Below are positions 120-8,695 of a DNA stretch of 57,793 bases, piece after piece. The notes below the pieces were generated by a model. It ran no database searches, was not told the origin of the DNA, and worked only from the letters and a program-made list of their open reading frames with translations. Position 1 is the first letter of the stretch. Each line of letters starts with the position of its first letter. Both the position numbers and the translations under genes were made by a program. The stretch comes from an uncultured Bacilli bacterium (lineage in GTDB: Bacteria; Bacillota_I; Bacilli_A; RF39; UBA660). The stretch lies in contig CAKOXR010000001.1 of the NCBI GenBank assembly GCA_934130215.1, positions 1 to 57,793 of the forward strand, given 5' to 3'.

Positions 120-1100
120 TTGGATAATGATATTTTTTATGATACTGGTGGTGTTAATGTATCTGGTGCTAGAATTAGATGTTGGAAAGCAGGTGGTCAT
201 GGATCGCAGACTTATTTACAAGTAGTTGAAAACTCTTGTAATACAGGGTTTGTTAGTTTAGGTTTTAAATTAGGAAAAGATAAATTATTTGATTATATTA
301 AAAAATTTGGGTTCGGTTCTAAAACTGGTGTTGATTTAAATGGAGAAGAAAATGGTATATTATTTAAATTAGATAAAGTTGGTGATTTAGAACTTGCAAC
401 CACTTCTTTTGGTCAAGGAGTAAGTGTAACACCTATACAACAAATAGTTGCGGTATCTGCTGCAATTAATGGTGGCTATTTAATGAAACCTTATATTGTT
501 AAATCATTAAACGAACCAGTTACTAATACTGTTATAAAAGAAAATAAACCAGTTATTGTAAGAAAAGTTATTTCTGATGAAACAAGTAGTAAAGTTAGAT
601 ATGCATTAGAAAATGTTGTTGCAAATGGAACGGGAAGGAATGCTTATATTGAAAATTATAGAGTTGGAGGTAAAACAGGAACAGCTCAAAAAGTAAAAAA
701 TGGAACATATATGGTAGGAAATTATATTGTATCATTTATAGGTTTTTTACCAAGTGATGATCCTGAAGTAATTGTATATATTGCAATTGATCATCCTCAA
801 GGTATTGTACAATATGGAGGTAGTGTTTCAGCACCAATTGCTAGAGAAGTTTTAATGGATTCTATATCTGCTTTAAAAATAAAGCCTAAAAGTGGACTTA
901 TTAAAAAATATAATTGGAATGATAAAAAAGGATATCTCCTTGAAGATGTTGTTGGACTTGATGTAAATGATGCTATAAAAAAATTAAAACATTTTAAAGT
1001 TGAGTATTCTGGAAATGGTAATAAAGTAGTTTATATGTCACCTAAAAGTGGAACAAGATTACTTGAAGGAAGTACTATAAAATTAATGATTGGGGAATAA
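120..1100 (+). CDS. Class B penicillin-binding protein (SpoVD/FtsI-like): transpeptidase C-terminal part plus PASTA domain. Appears 5'-truncated.
   Basis: SxN motif (NSCNTGF), KTG motif (GGKTGTAQK) and a C-terminal PASTA-like segment; collinear with SpoVD as I remember it. In-frame similarity continues upstream to nt 51 (..SGVTFKIITLAAVLEEG). An in-frame TAG at 48-50 closes the frame, and no N-terminal domain is present. Confidence 0.8.
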   Translation: MDNDIFYDTGGVNVSGARIRCWKAGGHGSQTYLQVVENSCNTGFVSLGFKLGKDKLFDYIKKFGFGSKTGVDLNGEENGILFKLDKVGDLELATTSFGQGVSVTPIQQIVAVSAAINGGYLMKPYIVKSLNEPVTNTVIKENKPVIVRKVISDETSSKVRYALENVVANGTGRNAYIENYRVGGKTGTAQKVKNGTYMVGNYIVSFIGFLPSDDPEVIVYIAIDHPQGIVQYGGSVSAPIAREVLMDSISALKIKPKSGLIKKYNWNDKKGYLLEDVVGLDVNDAIKKLKHFKVEYSGNGNKVVYMSPKSGTRLLEGSTIKLMIGE

Positions 1101-1149
1101 ATATTATTATGGTATAATATATTTAGGTATTAATTTTAAGGGTGACATA

Positions 1150-2631
1150 ATGGATAAAATATATATGTGTATTGATTTAAAAAGCTTTTATGCATCAGTA
1201 GAGTGTAGAGAAAGAAATTTAGATCCGCTTGATACAAATTTAGTAGTTGCTGATGAATCTAGAACTGATAAAACCATTTGTTTAGCAGTTACACCATCTT
1301 TAAAAGCATATGGTTTATCAGGTAGATGTAGATTATATGAAGCAAAACAAAAAGTAAAGGAAATTAATTATCAAAGAAGAAAAAATAATAATTATAAACC
1401 ATTTAAAGGAAAATCTTATATTGCTTCAAAGTTAGTTGATAAAGAATTAGAACTTGATTTTATAAGAGCTGTTCCAAGAATGAAATTATATATGAAATAT
1501 AGTACAGATATATATAATATTTATTTAAAATATATTTCTTCTGATGATATTTTAGTTTATTCAATTGATGAAGTATTTTGTGATATAACAAATTATTTAT
1601 CTTTATATAATATGACTGCTGAAGAACTTGTTATAAAAATAATTGAGGATGTTTATAATAAAACAGGAATTACCGCTACTGCTGGCATTGGTACTAATAT
1701 GTATTTAGCTAAAGTAGCAATGGATATAACTGCCAAAAAAATGAAACCGAATAAATTTGGTGTTAGAATGGCTAGACTTGATGAAATGAGTTATAAAAAA
1801 GAATTATGGGATCATAAACCACTTACTGATTTTTGGAGAATTGGAAAAGGTTATCAAAAAAGGTTAGAGTCTAATAACATGTTTACAATGGGAGATATAG
1901 CTAGAATGTCTATTGAAAATGAAGATTTATTGTTTCAATTATTTGGAATTAATGCTGAATTTTTAATAGATCATGCATGGGGATATGAGTGTTGTACTAT
2001 ACAAGATATTAAAAATTATGAACCATCTTCTTCTAGTATTAGTCAAGGTCAAGTTTTACATTGTCCTTATACTTATGAGAAAGCTAAATTGATAGTTAAA
2101 GAAATGATTGATAATTTAGCTTTAGATTTAGTCAATAAAGGTTTAAAAACAAGTCAAATTGTTTTAACAATTGGATATGATGTTTCTAATTTAACTGATA
2201 ATAATATTAATAGATTATATCATGGTGATATTGTTTTAGATAATTATGGTAGAAAAATTCCCAAACATAGTCATGGTACTGTTAATATTAATCATAAAAC
2301 ATCCTCTAGTAAAATAATAACTGATAATGTTGTTTTACTTTATGATCGAATAGTTAACCCTTTATTATTAATTAGAAGAATAAATATAACAGCTTGTAAT
2401 TTAGTTAATGAAAATTATAAAGAAAGAAGTTATGAACAATTAGATATTTTTACTAATTATGAAGAAATTGATAAAAAGAAAAATGATGAAGAAAAGGAAA
2501 AAAATATTCAAAAAGTAATACTTGATATAAAGAAAAAATATGGAAAAAATTCTATTTTAAAAGGTATTAATTTAGAGGATGGTGCAACTAGCATTGCTAG
2601 AAATGAAGAAGTTGGAGGACATAAAGGATGA
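1150..2631 (+). CDS. Y-family (translesion) DNA polymerase, ImpB/UmuC/UvrX-like
   Basis: N-terminus MDKIYMCIDLKSFYASVECRERNLDP is typical of the family. ATG at 1150 follows a GGTGA RBS. The ORF-track start at 1090 is probably an upstream extension. Confidence 0.85.
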   Translation: MDKIYMCIDLKSFYASVECRERNLDPLDTNLVVADESRTDKTICLAVTPSLKAYGLSGRCRLYEAKQKVKEINYQRRKNNNYKPFKGKSYIASKLVDKELELDFIRAVPRMKLYMKYSTDIYNIYLKYISSDDILVYSIDEVFCDITNYLSLYNMTAEELVIKIIEDVYNKTGITATAGIGTNMYLAKVAMDITAKKMKPNKFGVRMARLDEMSYKKELWDHKPLTDFWRIGKGYQKRLESNNMFTMGDIARMSIENEDLLFQLFGINAEFLIDHAWGYECCTIQDIKNYEPSSSSISQGQVLHCPYTYEKAKLIVKEMIDNLALDLVNKGLKTSQIVLTIGYDVSNLTDNNINRLYHGDIVLDNYGRKIPKHSHGTVNINHKTSSSKIITDNVVLLYDRIVNPLLLIRRINITACNLVNENYKERSYEQLDIFTNYEEIDKKKNDEEKEKNIQKVILDIKKKYGKNSILKGINLEDGATSIARNEEVGGHKG

Positions 2632-3041
2632 GTAAATATGATGATATTATAAATTTAAATAGACCTATTTCTAAATATCCTCATTTGAGTATAGATTCAA
2701 GAGCTTCACAGTTTGGTTCTTTTTCTGCTTTAACTGGATACGAAGATGAAGTTAAAGAAGTTGAGAGAATTACTTGTAAAAAAATAGAAATTAGTGATGA
2801 TTTTAAAAATATTTTAAATAATAAAATAAATTATTTGAATAATCATATTAAAGATAAAATAGAAGTTACTGTTACTTATTTTGTCAAAGATTTAAAAAAA
2901 GATGGAGGTATTTATATTAATAAAAAAGGTTTTATTAAAAAATTAGATTTTATTAATAAAAATATAAAATTTGATGATAATTTTATTATAAATATTAATG
3001 ATATTATAAATATTAATTTTGAAGAAATAAATTATGAATAA
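2628..3041 (+). CDS. YolD-like protein, the usual partner of Y-family polymerases
   Basis: ATGA overlap with the polymerase stop. 137 aa with a QFGSFSALTGYEDE motif and a YolD-like layout. This position downstream of a UmuC-like gene is the classic context. Confidence 0.55.
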   Translation: MSKYDDIINLNRPISKYPHLSIDSRASQFGSFSALTGYEDEVKEVERITCKKIEISDDFKNILNNKINYLNNHIKDKIEVTVTYFVKDLKKDGGIYINKKGFIKKLDFINKNIKFDDNFIININDIININFEEINYE

Positions 3042-3049
3042 ATTTTTTA

Positions 3050-3078
3050 TTGAAATCGGAAAAAATATGTGGTATTAT
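3050..3078 (+). promoter_or_regulatory. Sigma-A type promoter of the tasA/sipW-like operon
   Basis: TTGAAA (3050-3055), 17-nt spacer, TATTAT (3073-3078), with an extended -10 TG at 3070-3071. Confidence 0.55.
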
Positions 3079-3100
3079 TTATACTAGGAGGAGGATAAAA

Positions 3101-3754
3101 ATGGAAAAAAATAGAAATAATCAAGTTATTGCTGTAATAGCACTTGTTATTGGTATAATTGGATTATCTGTTGGTTTTGCTGCATTTTCAAATGTTTTAA
3201 AAATACAATCTTCTGCTGAAGTAACACCTGATAAATCTACTTTAAATGTTGATTTTTCAAGTTCAAGCACTGAAGTTGCGACAGATGATATTACAGCTGT
3301 TACTACACCAACTACTGTTGTTGCTACAAAAGCTACTATTGATAATACTAATGATCCAACTATTTCCAATTTAAAAGCTACATTTACTGAACCTGGACAA
3401 AAAGCTGTTTATAGTTTTTATGCTTATAATAATGGTAAACTAGATGCTTATTTAAAAAGCATAGTATTTGAGAATGTTACTGGCCAAACATCTAGTAAAG
3501 TATGTAGTAGTAAAGAAGGTACAACTGATGCTTTAGTTCAAAGTGCTTGTAATGGTATTTCTGTTAAAGTTAAAGTTGGAAATGAAGCAGAAACAAGTGG
3601 AAGTGTTGCTAGTATAACTAATCACGAATTAATTAAAGCAAATAGTGAAATGGTTACTGTTACTATTGAATATCAAGCTGATGCAACTAGAGCTGATGGA
3701 GATTTTACTGTATCATTTGGTGATATAATATTGAATTATAGTTCAGTTGATTAA
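3101..3754 (+). CDS. Secreted TasA/camelysin-like beta-sandwich protein with a SipW-type signal peptide
   Basis: AGGAGG RBS then ATG at 3101. The hydrophobic segment ends in GFAAFSNVL, which resembles the SipW-cognate signal motif. Also has PGQKAVYSFYAYNNGKLDAYL (PG..f.v.N.G.ld pattern). Lies directly upstream of a SipW-like peptidase. Confidence 0.5.
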   Translation: MEKNRNNQVIAVIALVIGIIGLSVGFAAFSNVLKIQSSAEVTPDKSTLNVDFSSSSTEVATDDITAVTTPTTVVATKATIDNTNDPTISNLKATFTEPGQKAVYSFYAYNNGKLDAYLKSIVFENVTGQTSSKVCSSKEGTTDALVQSACNGISVKVKVGNEAETSGSVASITNHELIKANSEMVTVTIEYQADATRADGDFTVSFGDIILNYSSVD

Positions 3755-3759
3755 TTTAA

Positions 3760-3787
3760 ATGACACAGTAAGTCTGTGCCATTTTTG
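3760..3787 (+). terminator. Intra-operon hairpin/attenuator after the tasA-like gene
   Basis: ATGACACAG (3760-3768) pairs with CTGTGCCAT (3774-3782) with one mismatch and a 5-nt loop, followed by TTTT. Confidence 0.45.
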
Positions 3788-3803
3788 TTTAAGGAGATTA
3801 TTT

Positions 3804-4901
3804 ATGAAGAAAAGTTATGTTAAATTAATTATTATAAATTTTTTAACAATTTTATTTTGTTTATTTAATTCATTTTATTTTAAAAAAATAAATTCTTTAT
3901 TTTTAACTTTTTTTCTTATAATTTTACTTTTAATTACAAAAATATTGTTTGGATTTGAAAAAGATAAACATCGATATATTAAAGATGTTTGTTTAAAAAT
4001 AGTTATTAATTTATTTATATTTTTGATTTTTTATTATTTAGTTGGTATTTTTATAGGGTTTGCAAAAACTTATAATTTTTCTTCTTTAAAAGCTATAATA
4101 AATATTATATTTTATATTGTTATTAAAGAATATTTAAGATATACTTTAATTACAAAGTCTAGTGAAAGCAAATTTTTATTAATACTTACAACAATAATGT
4201 TTATTTTTATTGATAATACTATTGCTTTTTCAATAAATGGTTTTTTATTTAATAAAAGTACTTTTCTTTTAGTTGCTATTACATTTATTCCATCAATTAC
4301 AGAAAATATTTTATGTTCATGGATGAGTTTTAAATTTGGTTTTAAACCAGTTATGTTGTATTTATTAATTATAAAATTATATCTTTATATTTTACCTATT
4401 ATTCCAAATCCAAATGAATATATATATTCAATAATTTTCTTTTTACTGCCTATAATAATTTTATTTAATATTAAAAAATGGTTAGATAAAGGAGATTTAA
4501 ATATAGTTTTAAATAAAGCAAATATTATTCCATATTTTTTAATTGCTTTTTCTTTGATTTTGATTTATTTTGTTTCAGGTTATTTTAGATATTATGCAAT
4601 TGCGATTGCAAGTGGTTCTATGAATCCTGTAATCAAAAAGGGTGATGTTGTTATTGTTGATCAAAAGTTTAAAAATTTAAAAAAAGGTGATATAATTGCT
4701 TATAGATATAATGGAACTGTAATTGTTCATCGTATTAATGATTTAATTAGAGATAAAAATGATATTATTATTTATACTAAGGGTGATAGTAATAGTTCTT
4801 GTGATAGTTGGAAAGTTGAATATGATATGATAATTGGGGTTATTAATTATAAAATACCTTTAATTGGATATCCGACTGTATGGATTAATAATTATTGGTA
4901 G
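3804..4901 (+). CDS. Archaeal/SipW-type signal peptidase I (S26B) fused to an N-terminal ~280-aa polytopic membrane domain
   Basis: AAGGAG RBS then ATG at 3804. C-terminal catalytic motifs are SGSMNPVIKKGD (Ser), VHRI (His) and KGDSN. The preceding ~280 residues are almost entirely hydrophobic F/I/L-rich segments. Confidence 0.75.
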   Translation: MKKSYVKLIIINFLTILFCLFNSFYFKKINSLFLTFFLIILLLITKILFGFEKDKHRYIKDVCLKIVINLFIFLIFYYLVGIFIGFAKTYNFSSLKAIINIIFYIVIKEYLRYTLITKSSESKFLLILTTIMFIFIDNTIAFSINGFLFNKSTFLLVAITFIPSITENILCSWMSFKFGFKPVMLYLLIIKLYLYILPIIPNPNEYIYSIIFFLLPIIILFNIKKWLDKGDLNIVLNKANIIPYFLIAFSLILIYFVSGYFRYYAIAIASGSMNPVIKKGDVVIVDQKFKNLKKGDIIAYRYNGTVIVHRINDLIRDKNDIIIYTKGDSNSSCDSWKVEYDMIIGVINYKIPLIGYPTVWINNYW

Positions 4902-4912
4902 GGAGGTAATAT

Positions 4913-5965
4913 ATGTTTAAAAAGATGCATTTTTCTTATAATTTTAGATTAATTATAAATTATTTTTTGTTTTTTATTTTTCTAGTTTTAAGTTTTATAA
5001 TGATTTATAATTCTTTAGATATTAAAAAAGAAGAAAATATAAAATATAATGAAAAGGGTAGTATTAATTATAAGGTTTGTTTAAAAGAAAATAATTTTTA
5101 TGAAAATAGTTGTATAGATAATAATATGTCATATATTTCTGGTTTAATTAAAAATATACCTTTATATTTTGATTATAATTTTAAAGTTAATAAAAGCTCT
5201 AATATAATTGTTAAATATGAAGTTAGTTGTAATTTAGTTATTTCCAATATTGAAAATTCTTTAATTTATTTTAATAAAAATTATATATTAGTTCCATTAA
5301 CAGAGTCCATTTATCATAATAATAGTTATAATTTAGTTAATAATGATATTATAATTGATTATGATTATTATAATAATATTGCAAGTAATTTTAAAAGTGA
5401 ATTTGGTGTTGATACTAAGAGTTATTTAGAGGTTATATATACAGTTTATAATGAAATAAATGGTAATATTATATCTCCTAGTGTTAGCTCTATAAATATT
5501 CCTCTTTCACAAAAATCAATTGATATTAATATGAAATCTAATGATCTTTTAAATAGTGGTAATCAAAAAAGTTTTAAATATTCGATTAGTTTAGTTAATA
5601 TTATTTATTTTAGTTTAGGTTTAATTAGTTTTTTATGTTCTTTTATTTTTTTAATTAAGGGTATTAGGTTGTCGTTGTTAGTTTTATCTACTAAAAATGA
5701 ATATGATAAATATATTAATAAAATTTTAAAAGAATATGATAGATTAATTGTTGAGACAACTTCAATTCCTGATTTTAATGATTACAATGTTATTTTAATT
5801 AAAAAGTTTTCAGAATTACTTGATGTTAGAGATAATTTACATTTACCTATAATGTATTATGTTGTTGTTAAACATCATAAATCTTATTTATATATTTTAA
5901 ATAATAATAATTTATATTTACTTACTTTAAAAAGTGTTGATTTTTGTAAAGAGAGGGTAAAATGA
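4913..5965 (+). CDS. Two-TM membrane protein of unknown function (possibly DUF5305-like, a family I recall next to SipW-type peptidases)
   Basis: GGGAGG RBS. N-terminal TM, an extracytoplasmic region of about 200 aa, a second TM (IIYFSLGLISFLCSFIFLI), then a cytoplasmic tail of about 100 aa. Confidence 0.45.
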   Translation: MFKKMHFSYNFRLIINYFLFFIFLVLSFIMIYNSLDIKKEENIKYNEKGSINYKVCLKENNFYENSCIDNNMSYISGLIKNIPLYFDYNFKVNKSSNIIVKYEVSCNLVISNIENSLIYFNKNYILVPLTESIYHNNSYNLVNNDIIIDYDYYNNIASNFKSEFGVDTKSYLEVIYTVYNEINGNIISPSVSSINIPLSQKSIDINMKSNDLLNSGNQKSFKYSISLVNIIYFSLGLISFLCSFIFLIKGIRLSLLVLSTKNEYDKYINKILKEYDRLIVETTSIPDFNDYNVILIKKFSELLDVRDNLHLPIMYYVVVKHHKSYLYILNNNNLYLLTLKSVDFCKERVK

Positions 5966-7440
5966 TTAATAAAAAAATTTTATATTTTATTTTTTTCATT
6001 ATTTTATTTTTATCTATTGGTTTTTCTGCTTTTCAAAATAATTTAAGTATTGATAATATTTTTTTAAATGTTAATATTGATAAAGATATTAGAGTTATGG
6101 GGATTTCTGTTAATGAATCAAAAGATGCTTTTAGTACATATGAAGATTATAATGTTAGTAATATTAAATCAAATGTTACTTTATCTAATAGTAATTCATA
6201 TATTATTTATAAGATTCCTGTTTATAATTTAGGGAATGTTGTTATGGGTATTAGGAGTATAAGTATAAATTATGATAATTTAAGTGTTAGTATTTTAAAT
6301 TATGATTTAAAATCTAAACTTTGTGATGATAAATGTGCTTCTGGTGTAAAAAAAGATTTACTTGTTAAAATATCTTATAAGGATGGATTATTTGATAGTT
6401 TAAATACTTCTTATGATATTAAAATAGATTTTGTTTTTGGAAGAATATTTAATATTGATTATAAAGATATTGATATTTCTTATCCTAAAGAAATAATCGA
6501 GGGTGATACTTTAACTTTAAATATTCCTGATAGAGAAGATAGTTCTTTAAAAGTTTTTATGAATAAAAGAAAGTTAGTTATTGATTCTGATTATCAATAT
6601 TCATCTGGTGTTTTGACTATTCCAAATGTAGATGGTGATATTTCGATGTTTTTTAAATTACCGATTTGTCAAAGAGCAACAGTTCTTCATACTGAGGAGT
6701 GTACAGGTAAATTTTGTGGTGGTATGGGTTTTACTAATGATGGTAAAATGAAAACAACTACAATTACTTATGGTTCATTAGGAATTCAAGGTACTTTAAA
6801 TTCTGGTGATGCTTTTGATTGTGATACCAATGGTGATGGAGAATATAATCCAGAAACAGAAAGATTTTATTATGTTACAACAATGGGTGATGATTCTAGG
6901 GTTGCTGTTTTAATTTATTATAATAATGTTAGTGCTGGTGAACCTAATAATAATAGTTTTTATGCATATGATGATTTTGATGGAAATTGGTTTGGTCCTA
7001 GAGTTGCGATTCAACAACTTCCAACTAGAAGTCAATGGAGTAATATTAGTTTATCAAATACTGAAAGAAAAATAACAAATGAATATGGTACTAATAATAC
7101 TAAAGATAATCATACTTTTCCTAGTGTTTTTAGTTATGATGGTTATTCTGCTAGATTTTTAACTTATCAAGAGTTAAAAAAAGTTGTAAATAATATCCCA
7201 ACTTGGAAAAGTGGTGAATTTAATGATCATTTATATTTATCTGAGAATACTAAGTTTTCTAATGGTAAGGCATCTGTTTTTGATGGATATTGGTTAGAAA
7301 ATCCTCGATATGGTTTACCTACTTATGCTTGGTTTCTTTATACATCTGAAAGAAGGGTACATAGTGCTGATGTTAAAATAAATAATATTTATGGTGTTAG
7401 GCCAGTTATAGAAATTTCATTTGACGATATATTATATTAA
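5962..7440 (+). CDS. Large secreted protein with a SipW-type signal peptide and a C-terminal module ending YGVRPVIEI
   Basis: ATGA overlap with the upstream gene. The signal segment ends in GFSAFQNNL. Contains a Cys cluster CQRATVLHTEECTGKFCGG. The C-terminal pattern YWLENP...AW....YGVRPVI resembles DUF6273-like domains. Confidence 0.6.
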   Translation: MINKKILYFIFFIILFLSIGFSAFQNNLSIDNIFLNVNIDKDIRVMGISVNESKDAFSTYEDYNVSNIKSNVTLSNSNSYIIYKIPVYNLGNVVMGIRSISINYDNLSVSILNYDLKSKLCDDKCASGVKKDLLVKISYKDGLFDSLNTSYDIKIDFVFGRIFNIDYKDIDISYPKEIIEGDTLTLNIPDREDSSLKVFMNKRKLVIDSDYQYSSGVLTIPNVDGDISMFFKLPICQRATVLHTEECTGKFCGGMGFTNDGKMKTTTITYGSLGIQGTLNSGDAFDCDTNGDGEYNPETERFYYVTTMGDDSRVAVLIYYNNVSAGEPNNNSFYAYDDFDGNWFGPRVAIQQLPTRSQWSNISLSNTERKITNEYGTNNTKDNHTFPSVFSYDGYSARFLTYQELKKVVNNIPTWKSGEFNDHLYLSENTKFSNGKASVFDGYWLENPRYGLPTYAWFLYTSERRVHSADVKINNIYGVRPVIEISFDDILY

Positions 7441-7495: not shown

Positions 7496-8695
7496 ATGAA
7501 AAAAAAGTTTATTTTGATACTATTTTTAATATTAATATTACCTATTAATATAAGTGCTAAAACGATTAATGATATGAAAAAAGAATTACAAAAGCTTGAA
7601 AATAAACTAGCTGAATCAAAGAAAATGTCAAAATTAAATAAAGATGAAATTGATAAAATTAATAATGAAATTAATACAATTAGTCAAAATATAATAGATG
7701 CACAAAATGCAATAGAAAAAGCAAATAAAAAAATTGAGTTAAATGAAAAAGAAATTGAACAAAAAAAAGAAGAAACAGATGAATTATTAAAATATTTTCA
7801 GGTTTCATCAAATGAAAATGTTTATTTAGAGTATTTGTTTGATGCTAAAACTTATACAGAATTTATTTATAGATTTTCCATTGTAAAACAATTAACGGAA
7901 TATAATGATGTACTTTCTAAAGAACTTTCTAAAATGACTTTAGATTTAGAACAATCAAAAGTTGATTTAAAACAAAAAACTGAAGATTTAAAAAATGAAA
8001 AAATTAATTATGAAGATAAATTATTAACTCTTGCTTTAAGAAGTGATGAAATAAGAGAAGAAGGAACTTCTATAGAAGAAGATATTGAATTTATTAAAGA
8101 AGAAATTAAAACATATACTGAAATGGGATGTGCTCCTAATCAAGATATTAGATTATGTAAAGCTGTTCCTAATTCAAAAGGATGGGTCTATCCATTACTT
8201 AGTGGATGGGTTACAAGTAACTATTCTAGTAATAGAGGAGTTGTAATTTCTAATGGAGTTGTTGTTAGTAGTGGTGCTCATTATGGTATTGATTTAGGTG
8301 GTATGCCTGAGGGAACTAGTGTTTATGCTGCTGCTCCTGGTATGGTTACAAGACTTGTTTATAGAAGCAGTTGTGGTGGTAATCAAGTTTTTGTTGAACA
8401 TAAAGTTAATGGAGTTGTTTATACAACTGCTTATATGCATTTGCTTTCAATTAGTGTTAAAAAAGGAGATATTGTTGGACCTACTATAGAGATTGGTCGA
8501 GTTGGTGGTGATTCTACTAGTGCTACTACAAAGACTGGTAAATTAAGAGGTGGGTATGATTGGTGTACTAATGGAACTCATTTACATTTTGCTGTTTCTA
8601 ATGGTTCTTATTCTACTAGTACTTATGGATTTAATGCTAATTCATTTAATCCAACTAAAATACTTGATTTTTCAAAAGGACGTTTTTCAAGATAA
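7496..8695 (+). CDS. M23 family peptidoglycan metalloendopeptidase with an N-terminal coiled coil
   Basis: Signal peptide, a long K/E-rich coiled-coil region, and LytM motifs HYGIDLGG and THLHFAV. Confidence 0.85.
   Translation: MKKKFILILFLILILPINISAKTINDMKKELQKLENKLAESKKMSKLNKDEIDKINNEINTISQNIIDAQNAIEKANKKIELNEKEIEQKKEETDELLKYFQVSSNENVYLEYLFDAKTYTEFIYRFSIVKQLTEYNDVLSKELSKMTLDLEQSKVDLKQKTEDLKNEKINYEDKLLTLALRSDEIREEGTSIEEDIEFIKEEIKTYTEMGCAPNQDIRLCKAVPNSKGWVYPLLSGWVTSNYSSNRGVVISNGVVVSSGAHYGIDLGGMPEGTSVYAAAPGMVTRLVYRSSCGGNQVFVEHKVNGVVYTTAYMHLLSISVKKGDIVGPTIEIGRVGGDSTSATTKTGKLRGGYDWCTNGTHLHFAVSNGSYSTSTYGFNANSFNPTKILDFSKGRFSR

Follow-up and report, generated by a model that had tools for sequence, protein, structure and literature searches.

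A four-gene operon in the genome of an uncultured Bacilli bacterium (GTDB UBA660; contig CAKOXR010000001.1 of assembly GCA_934130215.1) very probably encodes a dedicated signal peptidase together with two secreted proteins that are its cognate substrates, and is likely, with less assurance, to build an extracellular fiber of the TasA/AbpX/Tafi type from a hitherto unannotated subunit family. The operon occupies positions 3050-7440 on the + strand of the window, by which is meant the whole stretch of 57,793 nucleotides (nt; about 22% GC) that was analyzed, and its four same-strand genes are here called g1, g2, g3, and g4. A preliminary description of this DNA had listed them as encoding a secreted protein of 217 amino acids (aa) with a signal end of the GFAAFSNVL type, an archaeal-type signal peptidase, a protein with two transmembrane (TM) segments and a cytoplasmic tail, and a secreted 492-aa protein with a cysteine cluster and a C-terminal module ending in the manner of YGVRPVIEI. 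All four are present where it had placed them, and these characterizations are borne out by the results given below. What is new here is an unannotated subunit family under an operon layout that has already been published.

The second gene, g2 (3804-4901, + strand; 365 aa), is a polytopic signal peptidase I of the archaeal/endoplasmic reticulum (ER) type. It matches TIGR02228 (S26B) with 75 bits against a cutoff of 51.85, and also scores above the cutoffs of Peptidase_S24 (38 bits) and Peptidase_S26 (25.4 bits). In its catalytic domain (residues 262-365) the characteristic boxes are intact, namely SGSM at 270, VHRI with His309, and GDSN at 327, and hydropathy places about nine hydrophobic segments (residues 8-259) ahead of this domain, a feature that had gone unmentioned in the preliminary description. 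Relatives of g2 keep the full-length architecture (375-376 aa, 50-62% identity). Orthology with Bacillus SipW was considered and rejected, as the NF046067 model gives 61 bits against a cutoff of 190 and the N-terminal segments number about nine, not two. The third gene, g3 (4913-5965, + strand; 350 aa), is a DUF5305 protein, matching PF17231 with 30.6 bits against a gathering threshold of 29 over profile positions 14-215 of 217; its homologues in two of the related loci described below (L002 and L011) carry PF17231 as well. Its hydrophobic segments at 13-31 and 230-248 enclose a predicted extracytoplasmic domain and are followed by a 100-residue tail, the predicted cytoplasmic C-terminal domain. 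By analogy, g3 is presumed to be an accessory subunit of the signal peptidase g2: such a role has been proposed for DUF5305 proteins of AbpX loci (bioRxiv 10.64898/2026.01.04.697558), and TafG offers further precedents (PMC11821415; PMC12337348).

The probable major subunit is the product of g1 (3101-3754, + strand; 217 aa), which is made up of a signal (residues 1-27), a conserved amphipathic N-terminal segment (28-49), and an immunoglobulin (Ig)-like beta-sandwich (50-217). The signal end reads ...GLSVGFAAFSNVL, with G-F-A|A-F-S at the predicted cleavage point, where G-F-A|A satisfies the -3/-1 rule for signal peptidase cleavage. An AlphaFold2 (AF2) model built from 83 diverse sequences has a pLDDT (predicted local distance difference test) of 95, with a helix at residues 5-27 and a sandwich at 50-217 that bears the conserved Cys135 and Cys150; in this monomer the sandwich is complete, and residues 28-49 lie ahead of it, extended and without beta-pairing. 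The best-conserved stretch of the g1 family is G25-F26-A27-A28-F29-S30 (mean 3.5 bits per column), with G25 and F26 each at 94%, A27 at 87%, and F29 at 75%. After the signal end come alternating hydrophobic residues, of which L33, I35, A39, and V41 are conserved at 86-96%, and then F48, V50, and F52; residues 32-41 show the conserved amphipathic character. The mature subunit is acidic, with an isoelectric point (pI) of 4.5 and 12% Asp+Glu. The family is large: clustered at 50% identity it comprises about 1,288 groups, of which 310 have an E-value (E) of 1e-30 or lower, and none is annotated; close homologues of g1 come from metagenomes only. No Pfam or NCBIfam family was matched by g1 or its 82 relatives, for which the recurrent weak matches are to CARDB-like Ig domains (DUF7507, Cep192_D5, HYDIN/VesB Ig, DUF11). 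C-terminal extensions are present in 59 of the 150 best family representatives, roughly half of which extensions terminate in G[VI]RP[VI]I.

The fourth gene, g4 (5962-7440, + strand; 492 aa), encodes the probable minor or tip subunit. Its signal reads ...LSIGFSAFQNNL and ends in G-F-S|A-F-Q-N-N-L-S-I, and g1 and g4 are the only open reading frames (ORFs) in the whole window to contain the motif G-F-[AS]-A-F. The AF2 model (pLDDT 87) has two beta-sandwich regions (about 40-230) and a C-terminal module (about 235-492). When the N-terminus of the g4 family (signal plus first sandwich, residues 1-193) is aligned with the g1 family, hhalign returns 95.1% (E 3.4e-8), and on this profile evidence the N-terminal domain of g4 is a diverged paralogue of g1, with a second beta-sandwich following it. 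Cysteines are found at positions 121, 125, 236, 247, 252, and 287, and the C-terminus reads YGVRPVIEISFDDILY. Within the C-terminal module Cys236, Cys247, Cys252, and Cys287 are near-invariant and are accompanied by a D-C-D-x-N-G-D-G loop.

This module is also found elsewhere, at 53-62% identity, on several other N-termini. These include type IV prepilin N-termini (MKKKGFTLIELL...; PF07963), as in P0387 of Clostridium sp. CAG:433, and a third g1-family N-terminus (...GITVAYATLSQNLNISG) that aligns to the g1 family at 97.4% in hhalign; in P0131, moreover, a genuine g1 domain (E 4e-52) is fused to a C-terminal module of the g4 type. The module looks like a swappable binding domain. In Pfam, g4 itself matches only Lcl_C, weakly (E 0.25), and among 39 relatives DUF6273 is matched in 10 (best 27.2 bits against a cutoff of 23.5) and Lcl_C/DUF1566 in 5. 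In a Foldseek comparison of g4 with the viral models of BFVD, phage DUF6273 proteins are retrieved with prob 1.00 and 0.97 and DUF1566 with prob 0.94, at E-values of only 2e-3 to 2e-2. A C-type lectin fold has been reported for DUF6273-like domains of phage receptor-binding proteins (PMC10743442). Against the PDB, Foldseek gave no match for g4 at E <= 0.001 (the queries for g1 and g4 were full-length models including the membrane helix, which lowers TM-scores), and a profile search of PDB sequences with g4 returned nothing. As for the genes that carry the module, P0387 (L008:7001-8167, BN654_00879) is an orphan gene that directly follows dnaJ, and its neighborhood contains no pilus genes. Two further proteins are apparent fusions: P0324 (715 aa, 51 member sequences) joins a C-terminal fragment of the signal peptidase and an N-terminal part of DUF5305 to the body of g4, and in P0352 the C-terminal half of g4 is attached to the beginning of the polytopic peptidase. 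These may be real deletions or fusions, or artefacts of assembly or gene calling.

The gene order recurs in relatives. The succession g1-g2-g3 is found in locus L001 (UMGS1573, "uncultured Tenericutes"), in L002-L004, and in L011-L012, with different flanks in each, and in L011 all four genes occur in the order of the window, the g4 homologue being 500 aa long; a scan of the genome collection gave one locus only, that of UMGS1573. Identity to the relatives is highest for g1 (69-77%) and amounts to 52-60% for g4 and 44-49% for g3, the g3 of L001 reaching 64% over an 81-residue fragment at the contig end. The fourth gene varies. In L002-type operons its place is taken by a gene (L002:10964-11530) for a 188-aa protein that combines a CxxC...CxxC zinc-ribbon at its N-terminus with several hydrophobic segments and belongs to no Pfam family; the possibility that it is a short g4 was rejected, as it is an unrelated zinc-ribbon protein with membrane segments. 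Homologues of g4 also occur as orphan genes, in L005-L007 and L010. In L005 (3846-9494), L006, and L007, the full-length g4 homologue P0315 (54% identity) is accompanied by an ORF of 64 aa and a large serine recombinase of 528 aa, and this group sits between the halves of a split penicillin-binding protein gene (PBP_dimer+Transpeptidase, then Transpeptidase+PASTA). The P0315 set looks like cargo carried by an intervening or integrative element, and in L006 another recombinase and a TraG/VirD4-like gene also lie upstream of it.

At the level of expression, the preliminary description had proposed a promoter, a hairpin with a T-tract behind g1, and translational coupling of all four genes. The promoter is present at 3050-3078 (+ strand), a sigma-70-type TTGAAA-17-TATTAT with 10/12 matches and a TG directly before the -10 hexamer. 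Because the DNA is AT-rich, this match is not significant alone; the window is not enriched in promoter-like matches (71 found against 64.9 expected from shuffles at 22% GC). Comparable promoters stand at the same position in relatives, TTGCCA-17-TATCAT in L002 and TTGAAA-16-TATAAT in L011. A strong ribosome-binding site for g1, AGGAGGAGG, can be read at 3087-3095 (+ strand). Coupling holds for only part of the operon. The ribosome-binding site of g3, which starts 11 nt from g2, overlaps the g2 stop codon, and g3 and g4 overlap by ATGA, so tight coupling is limited to g2-g3-g4; g1 and g2 are 49 nt apart.

The spacer between g1 and g2 contains the hairpin, directly after g1. The element with its U-rich tail spans 3758-3790 (+ strand), the hairpin proper being 3758-3784, followed by UUGUUU. 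Its stem, AAAUG-A-CACAG / CUGUG-C-CAUUU, has one A-C mismatch in the window, and the predicted energy of -9.3 kcal/mol (z = -1.7) is weak on its own. In the close relatives L001 and L002 it is conserved in position, and the stem AAAUGACACAG/CUGUGUCAUUU is perfect, with -17.5 and -18.3 kcal/mol, respectively, and z about -4; L011, whose g1-g2 spacer is only 19 nt, has no hairpin. Because of the perfect stem in L001 and L002 and its absence from L011, the hairpin can be regarded as a lineage-specific but real element. A scan of the window against Rfam matched no family, and the hairpin is therefore not a known RNA family. It is plausible that it acts as a leaky terminator or a 3'-end stabilizer favoring g1 output.

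No closer kinship of g1 with TasA is detectable. The preliminary description had called g1 TasA/camelysin-like and had read its PG..Y.F.A.N.G.LDA strand pattern as a TasA feature. In searches with PF12389 (Peptidase_M73), g1 and all 82 relatives were without a match at E <= 1, and TIGR04088 of NCBIfam gave none in g1, g4, or the same relatives. The g1 family aligned to TasA alone reached 1.3% in hhalign, and again 1.3% against a 40-sequence alignment of the TasA family; the g1-family profile retrieved nothing from PDB sequences, and a Foldseek search of the PDB (350,542 chains) yielded no match for g1 at E <= 0.001. Direct membership in the TasA/camelysin family was therefore rejected, the Pfam, NCBIfam, PDB profile, and hhalign results all being negative. 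Only the stretch PG...N.G.L of g1 was aligned to TasA by hhalign, and without significance; this motif is common in CARDB-like Ig domains. What stands of the comparison is the signal end, where GFA|AFS of g1 resembles TWA|AFND of TasA, the mature TasA chain in 8aur beginning with AFNDIK; this likeness, which g4 shares, is at the motif level only and comes without a TIGR04088 match. The TasA fiber 8aur_A ranks third among the Foldseek matches of g1 (E 0.015, prob 0.80), FimA and PapG pilin domains reach similarly weak levels, and two distant members of the g1 family, P0376 and P0381, have sub-threshold Peptidase_M73 matches (14.5-16.1 bits against 22.5; E 0.011-0.031). On account of these sub-threshold matches and the Foldseek rank, a very remote relationship between g1 and TasA may exist.

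A parallel exists for the operon as a whole. In AbpX loci, which have been described from archaea, Bacillota, and Chloroflexota, the major subunit is accompanied by a dedicated signal peptidase of about ten membrane helices, by DUF5305, and by subunits of the minor or tip kind (bioRxiv 10.64898/2026.01.04.697558), and in the haloarchaeal Tafi system of Tat-fimbriae, assembled by strand donation, the TafD peptidase is paired with the DUF5305 protein TafG (PMC11821415; PMC12337348). The substrates of both kinds of locus are strand-donation filaments (bioRxiv 10.64898/2026.01.04.697558; PMC11821415; PMC12337348). The present operon has this architecture, in that a polytopic signal peptidase I, a DUF5305 protein, and a paralogous minor or tip subunit are co-located. 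Its composition, which the preliminary description had regarded as non-canonical, is thus canonical for the wider group, and the published AbpX/Tafi layout applies (bioRxiv 10.64898/2026.01.04.697558; PMC11821415). With AbpX-type loci the operon shares, besides the major subunit, dedicated peptidase, DUF5305 protein, and minor or tip subunits, an acidic mature subunit and an amphipathic strand at the N-terminus whose second mature residue (F29) is aromatic. It differs from them in that g1 has no detectable match to deposited structures of the TasA superfamily, that position 4 is not acidic, that neither an anchor (SLH or LPXTG) nor a regulator is found in the operon, and that the presumed tip carries a DUF6273-like lectin module.

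With the Tafi system, whose pilins are TafA/E, the operon has in common a peptidase and a DUF5305 protein beside major, minor, and tip subunits, and also the pattern of conserved enzymes combined with variable structural genes. The two differ in signal type (Tat in Tafi subunits, Sec here), in the peptidase, as TafD possesses an extra domain and four membrane segments, and in the host, in our case a gut bacterium of low GC content; nor are their subunit families related in sequence. The SipW systems of Bacillus subtilis (tapA-sipW-tasA) and Clostridium perfringens (sipW-bsaA-bsaB-bsaC) likewise place a dedicated ER/archaeal-type peptidase beside its substrates, share the A|AF(N/S) signal end, and possess, in TapA or BsaB, a second substrate with the common N-terminal strand, for which g4 would be the counterpart. 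In contrast, SipW is small, with two membrane segments and without a DUF5305 partner, the gene order differs, and no isopeptide N-E-K triad is evident. A looser resemblance is to the two-domain tip adhesins FimH and PapG, as g4 and P0131 each contain a shaft-like domain alongside a lectin-like module and weak Foldseek matches to FimA and the PapG pilin domain were obtained; here, however, chaperone and usher are lacking, the polarity is reversed, the binding module being at the C-terminus, and homology is not detectable.

Taken as a fiber system, the operon would work as follows. The products of g1 and g4 would be exported via the Sec pathway, and their signal ends, G-F-A|A-F-S and G-F-S|A-F-Q, would be cut by g2 with its DUF5305 partner g3. 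Cleavage would free an amphipathic N-terminal segment (AF-S/Q-N-x-L-x-I...), which would insert as a donor strand into the sandwich of a neighboring subunit, so that g1 polymerizes into a shaft. With the same N-terminal segment and its diverged g1-like domain, g4 would be present once per fiber, as nucleator or tip, and would display a C-type-lectin-like, probably Ca-binding, DUF6273-like module for adhesion. The hairpin after g1 would raise g1 output relative to g2-g4. Polymerization is what we infer from the architecture of the operon, the pairing of major and minor paralogues, the conservation of an amphipathic segment at the N-terminus, and a modular family structure in which shaft domains are combined with binding domains.

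Several results weigh against a fiber. No significant similarity of sequence or fold connects g1 with TasA or with any solved strand-donation filament: the TM-score of g1 to 8aur (TMq, from the helix-containing query) is only 0.30, and the AbpA, thread, and Tafi structures are absent from the top 50 Foldseek hits of g1. The weak Pfam matches that do recur are to generic CARDB-like Ig domains. An acidic residue at mature position 4 is used in Ca-mediated strand complementation in AbpX and is present in TasA (bioRxiv 10.64898/2026.01.04.697558); in g1 this position is N31, a non-acidic residue at a variable site. No anchor is present in the window, neither LPXTG nor an SLH domain, and g4 does not always belong to the operon, being an orphan or replaced by a different fourth gene in the loci described above. 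Much of this would also suit an explanation without any fiber, in which g1 and g4, perhaps as a coat protein and a lectin-like adhesin, are surface or secreted proteins that do not polymerize and simply need a specialized peptidase and DUF5305 to be processed, as would the many g1-family members that are single-chain fusions with binding modules and could be stand-alone adhesins. We consider this explanation rather unlikely. The characterized systems in which a dedicated SipW-type peptidase is encoded beside its substrates, whether or not DUF5305 is present (for example TasA, BsaA, Tafi, AbpX), all make filaments; it is hard to see why monomeric proteins would strictly conserve an amphipathic stretch after the cleavage site, as g1, g4, and the third type of N-terminus do; and a small abundant subunit with a larger paralogue that bears a binding module is a typical pilus arrangement.

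Other types of pilus were also considered. A sortase pilus was rejected for want of LPXTG, which was found in none of 57 long members of the g1 family, nor was an LPXTG-like motif with a hydrophobic tail found in any frame of the window. Identity of g1 or g4 as type IV pilins was rejected as well, neither having the prepilin motif G|FTLxE or a match to PF07963. A different proposal is that export or assembly proceeds via a type IV pilus or pseudopilus machine, for which the operon would supply cargo and tip modules and not an autonomous fiber. In locus L014 (664-5297), P0377, a g1-family protein with a DUF6273-like module, lies inside a type IV pilus cluster with the order pilC fragment, pilD (Peptidase_A24), P0377, pilB (T2SSE, minus strand), and two prepilin-like genes, a cluster that recalls the type IV pilus-dependent secretion of BsaA/BsaC in C. 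perfringens (PMC11580942). The position of P0377 between pilD and pilB, the fusion of the g4-type module to true prepilin N-termini as in P0387, and the dependence of efficient BsaA/BsaC secretion on type IV pilus genes (PMC11580942) speak for such a link. However, this neighborhood was seen in one locus only, no type IV pilus genes stand beside the operon in the window, L002, or L011, and the prepilin motif is lacking in both substrates. The proposal is held to be improbable, and dependence on a type IV pilus is in any case an add-on to the fiber reading rather than an exclusive alternative to it. The least probable explanation, and a very doubtful one, is that the hydrophobic helix stays uncleaved, leaving g1 and g4 as type II membrane-anchored proteins and g2/g3 to another substrate or to conditional release: the hydrophobic region is long for a signal peptide (16 residues, Kyte-Doolittle mean 2.8), AF2 draws residues 5-27 as one continuous helix, the window offers no wall anchor, and BsaA oligomers of C. 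perfringens have been reported to be membrane-anchored (PMC11580942), but the residues that obey the -3/-1 rule are the best conserved of the family, and the motif adjoins a catalytically intact dedicated peptidase and matches the position of the known TasA site.

The surroundings of the operon in the window are of other kinds. Immediately upstream (1090-3041), a Y-family DNA polymerase gene (IMS, IMS_C) overlaps a weak YolD-like ORF (2628-3041; PF08863 at E 0.043). Such pairs are frequent cargo of mobile elements; no integrase was seen near this one. On the minus strand, an 82-aa antisense ORF (3121-3369) within g1 is probably spurious. Downstream of g4 lies a gene for an M23 peptidase with a PcsB-like coiled coil (7496-8695; PF01551, PF24568). 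No terminator was seen on the 3' side of g4 before its start at 7496, and it may be co-transcribed with g4, but it does not adjoin the operon in relatives.

If g1 does not polymerize, the operon nonetheless clearly pairs a dedicated signal peptidase with its cognate substrates, which is ordinary in kind but useful for annotation. If it does, the principle of a fiber that depends on a signal peptidase and a DUF5305 protein, so far known from TasA, BsaA, Tafi, and AbpX (PMC11821415; PMC12337348; PMC11580942; bioRxiv 10.64898/2026.01.04.697558), would extend to abundant uncultured bacteria of the human gut, and a subunit family invisible to current domain databases would be added to it, with its some 1,288 clusters. 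Moreover, the occurrence of a swappable DUF6273-like module on g1 domains, on type IV prepilins, and, by fold, in phage proteins points to a shared pool of ligand-binding tips, which would be relevant to gut colonization and to phage-host recognition. A more far-reaching proposal, which is offered tentatively and with some doubt, is that g1 is the founder of a very large, unannotated family of Ig-like pilins of uncultured low-GC gut bacteria that are Sec-exported, processed by a SipW-type peptidase, and strand-donating although no homology to TasA can be detected, with interchangeable C-type-lectin-like tips shared with type IV pilins and phage receptor-binding proteins. Were this true, these fibers would be a third major adhesive-fiber system of gut Bacillota, beside sortase pili and type IV pili.

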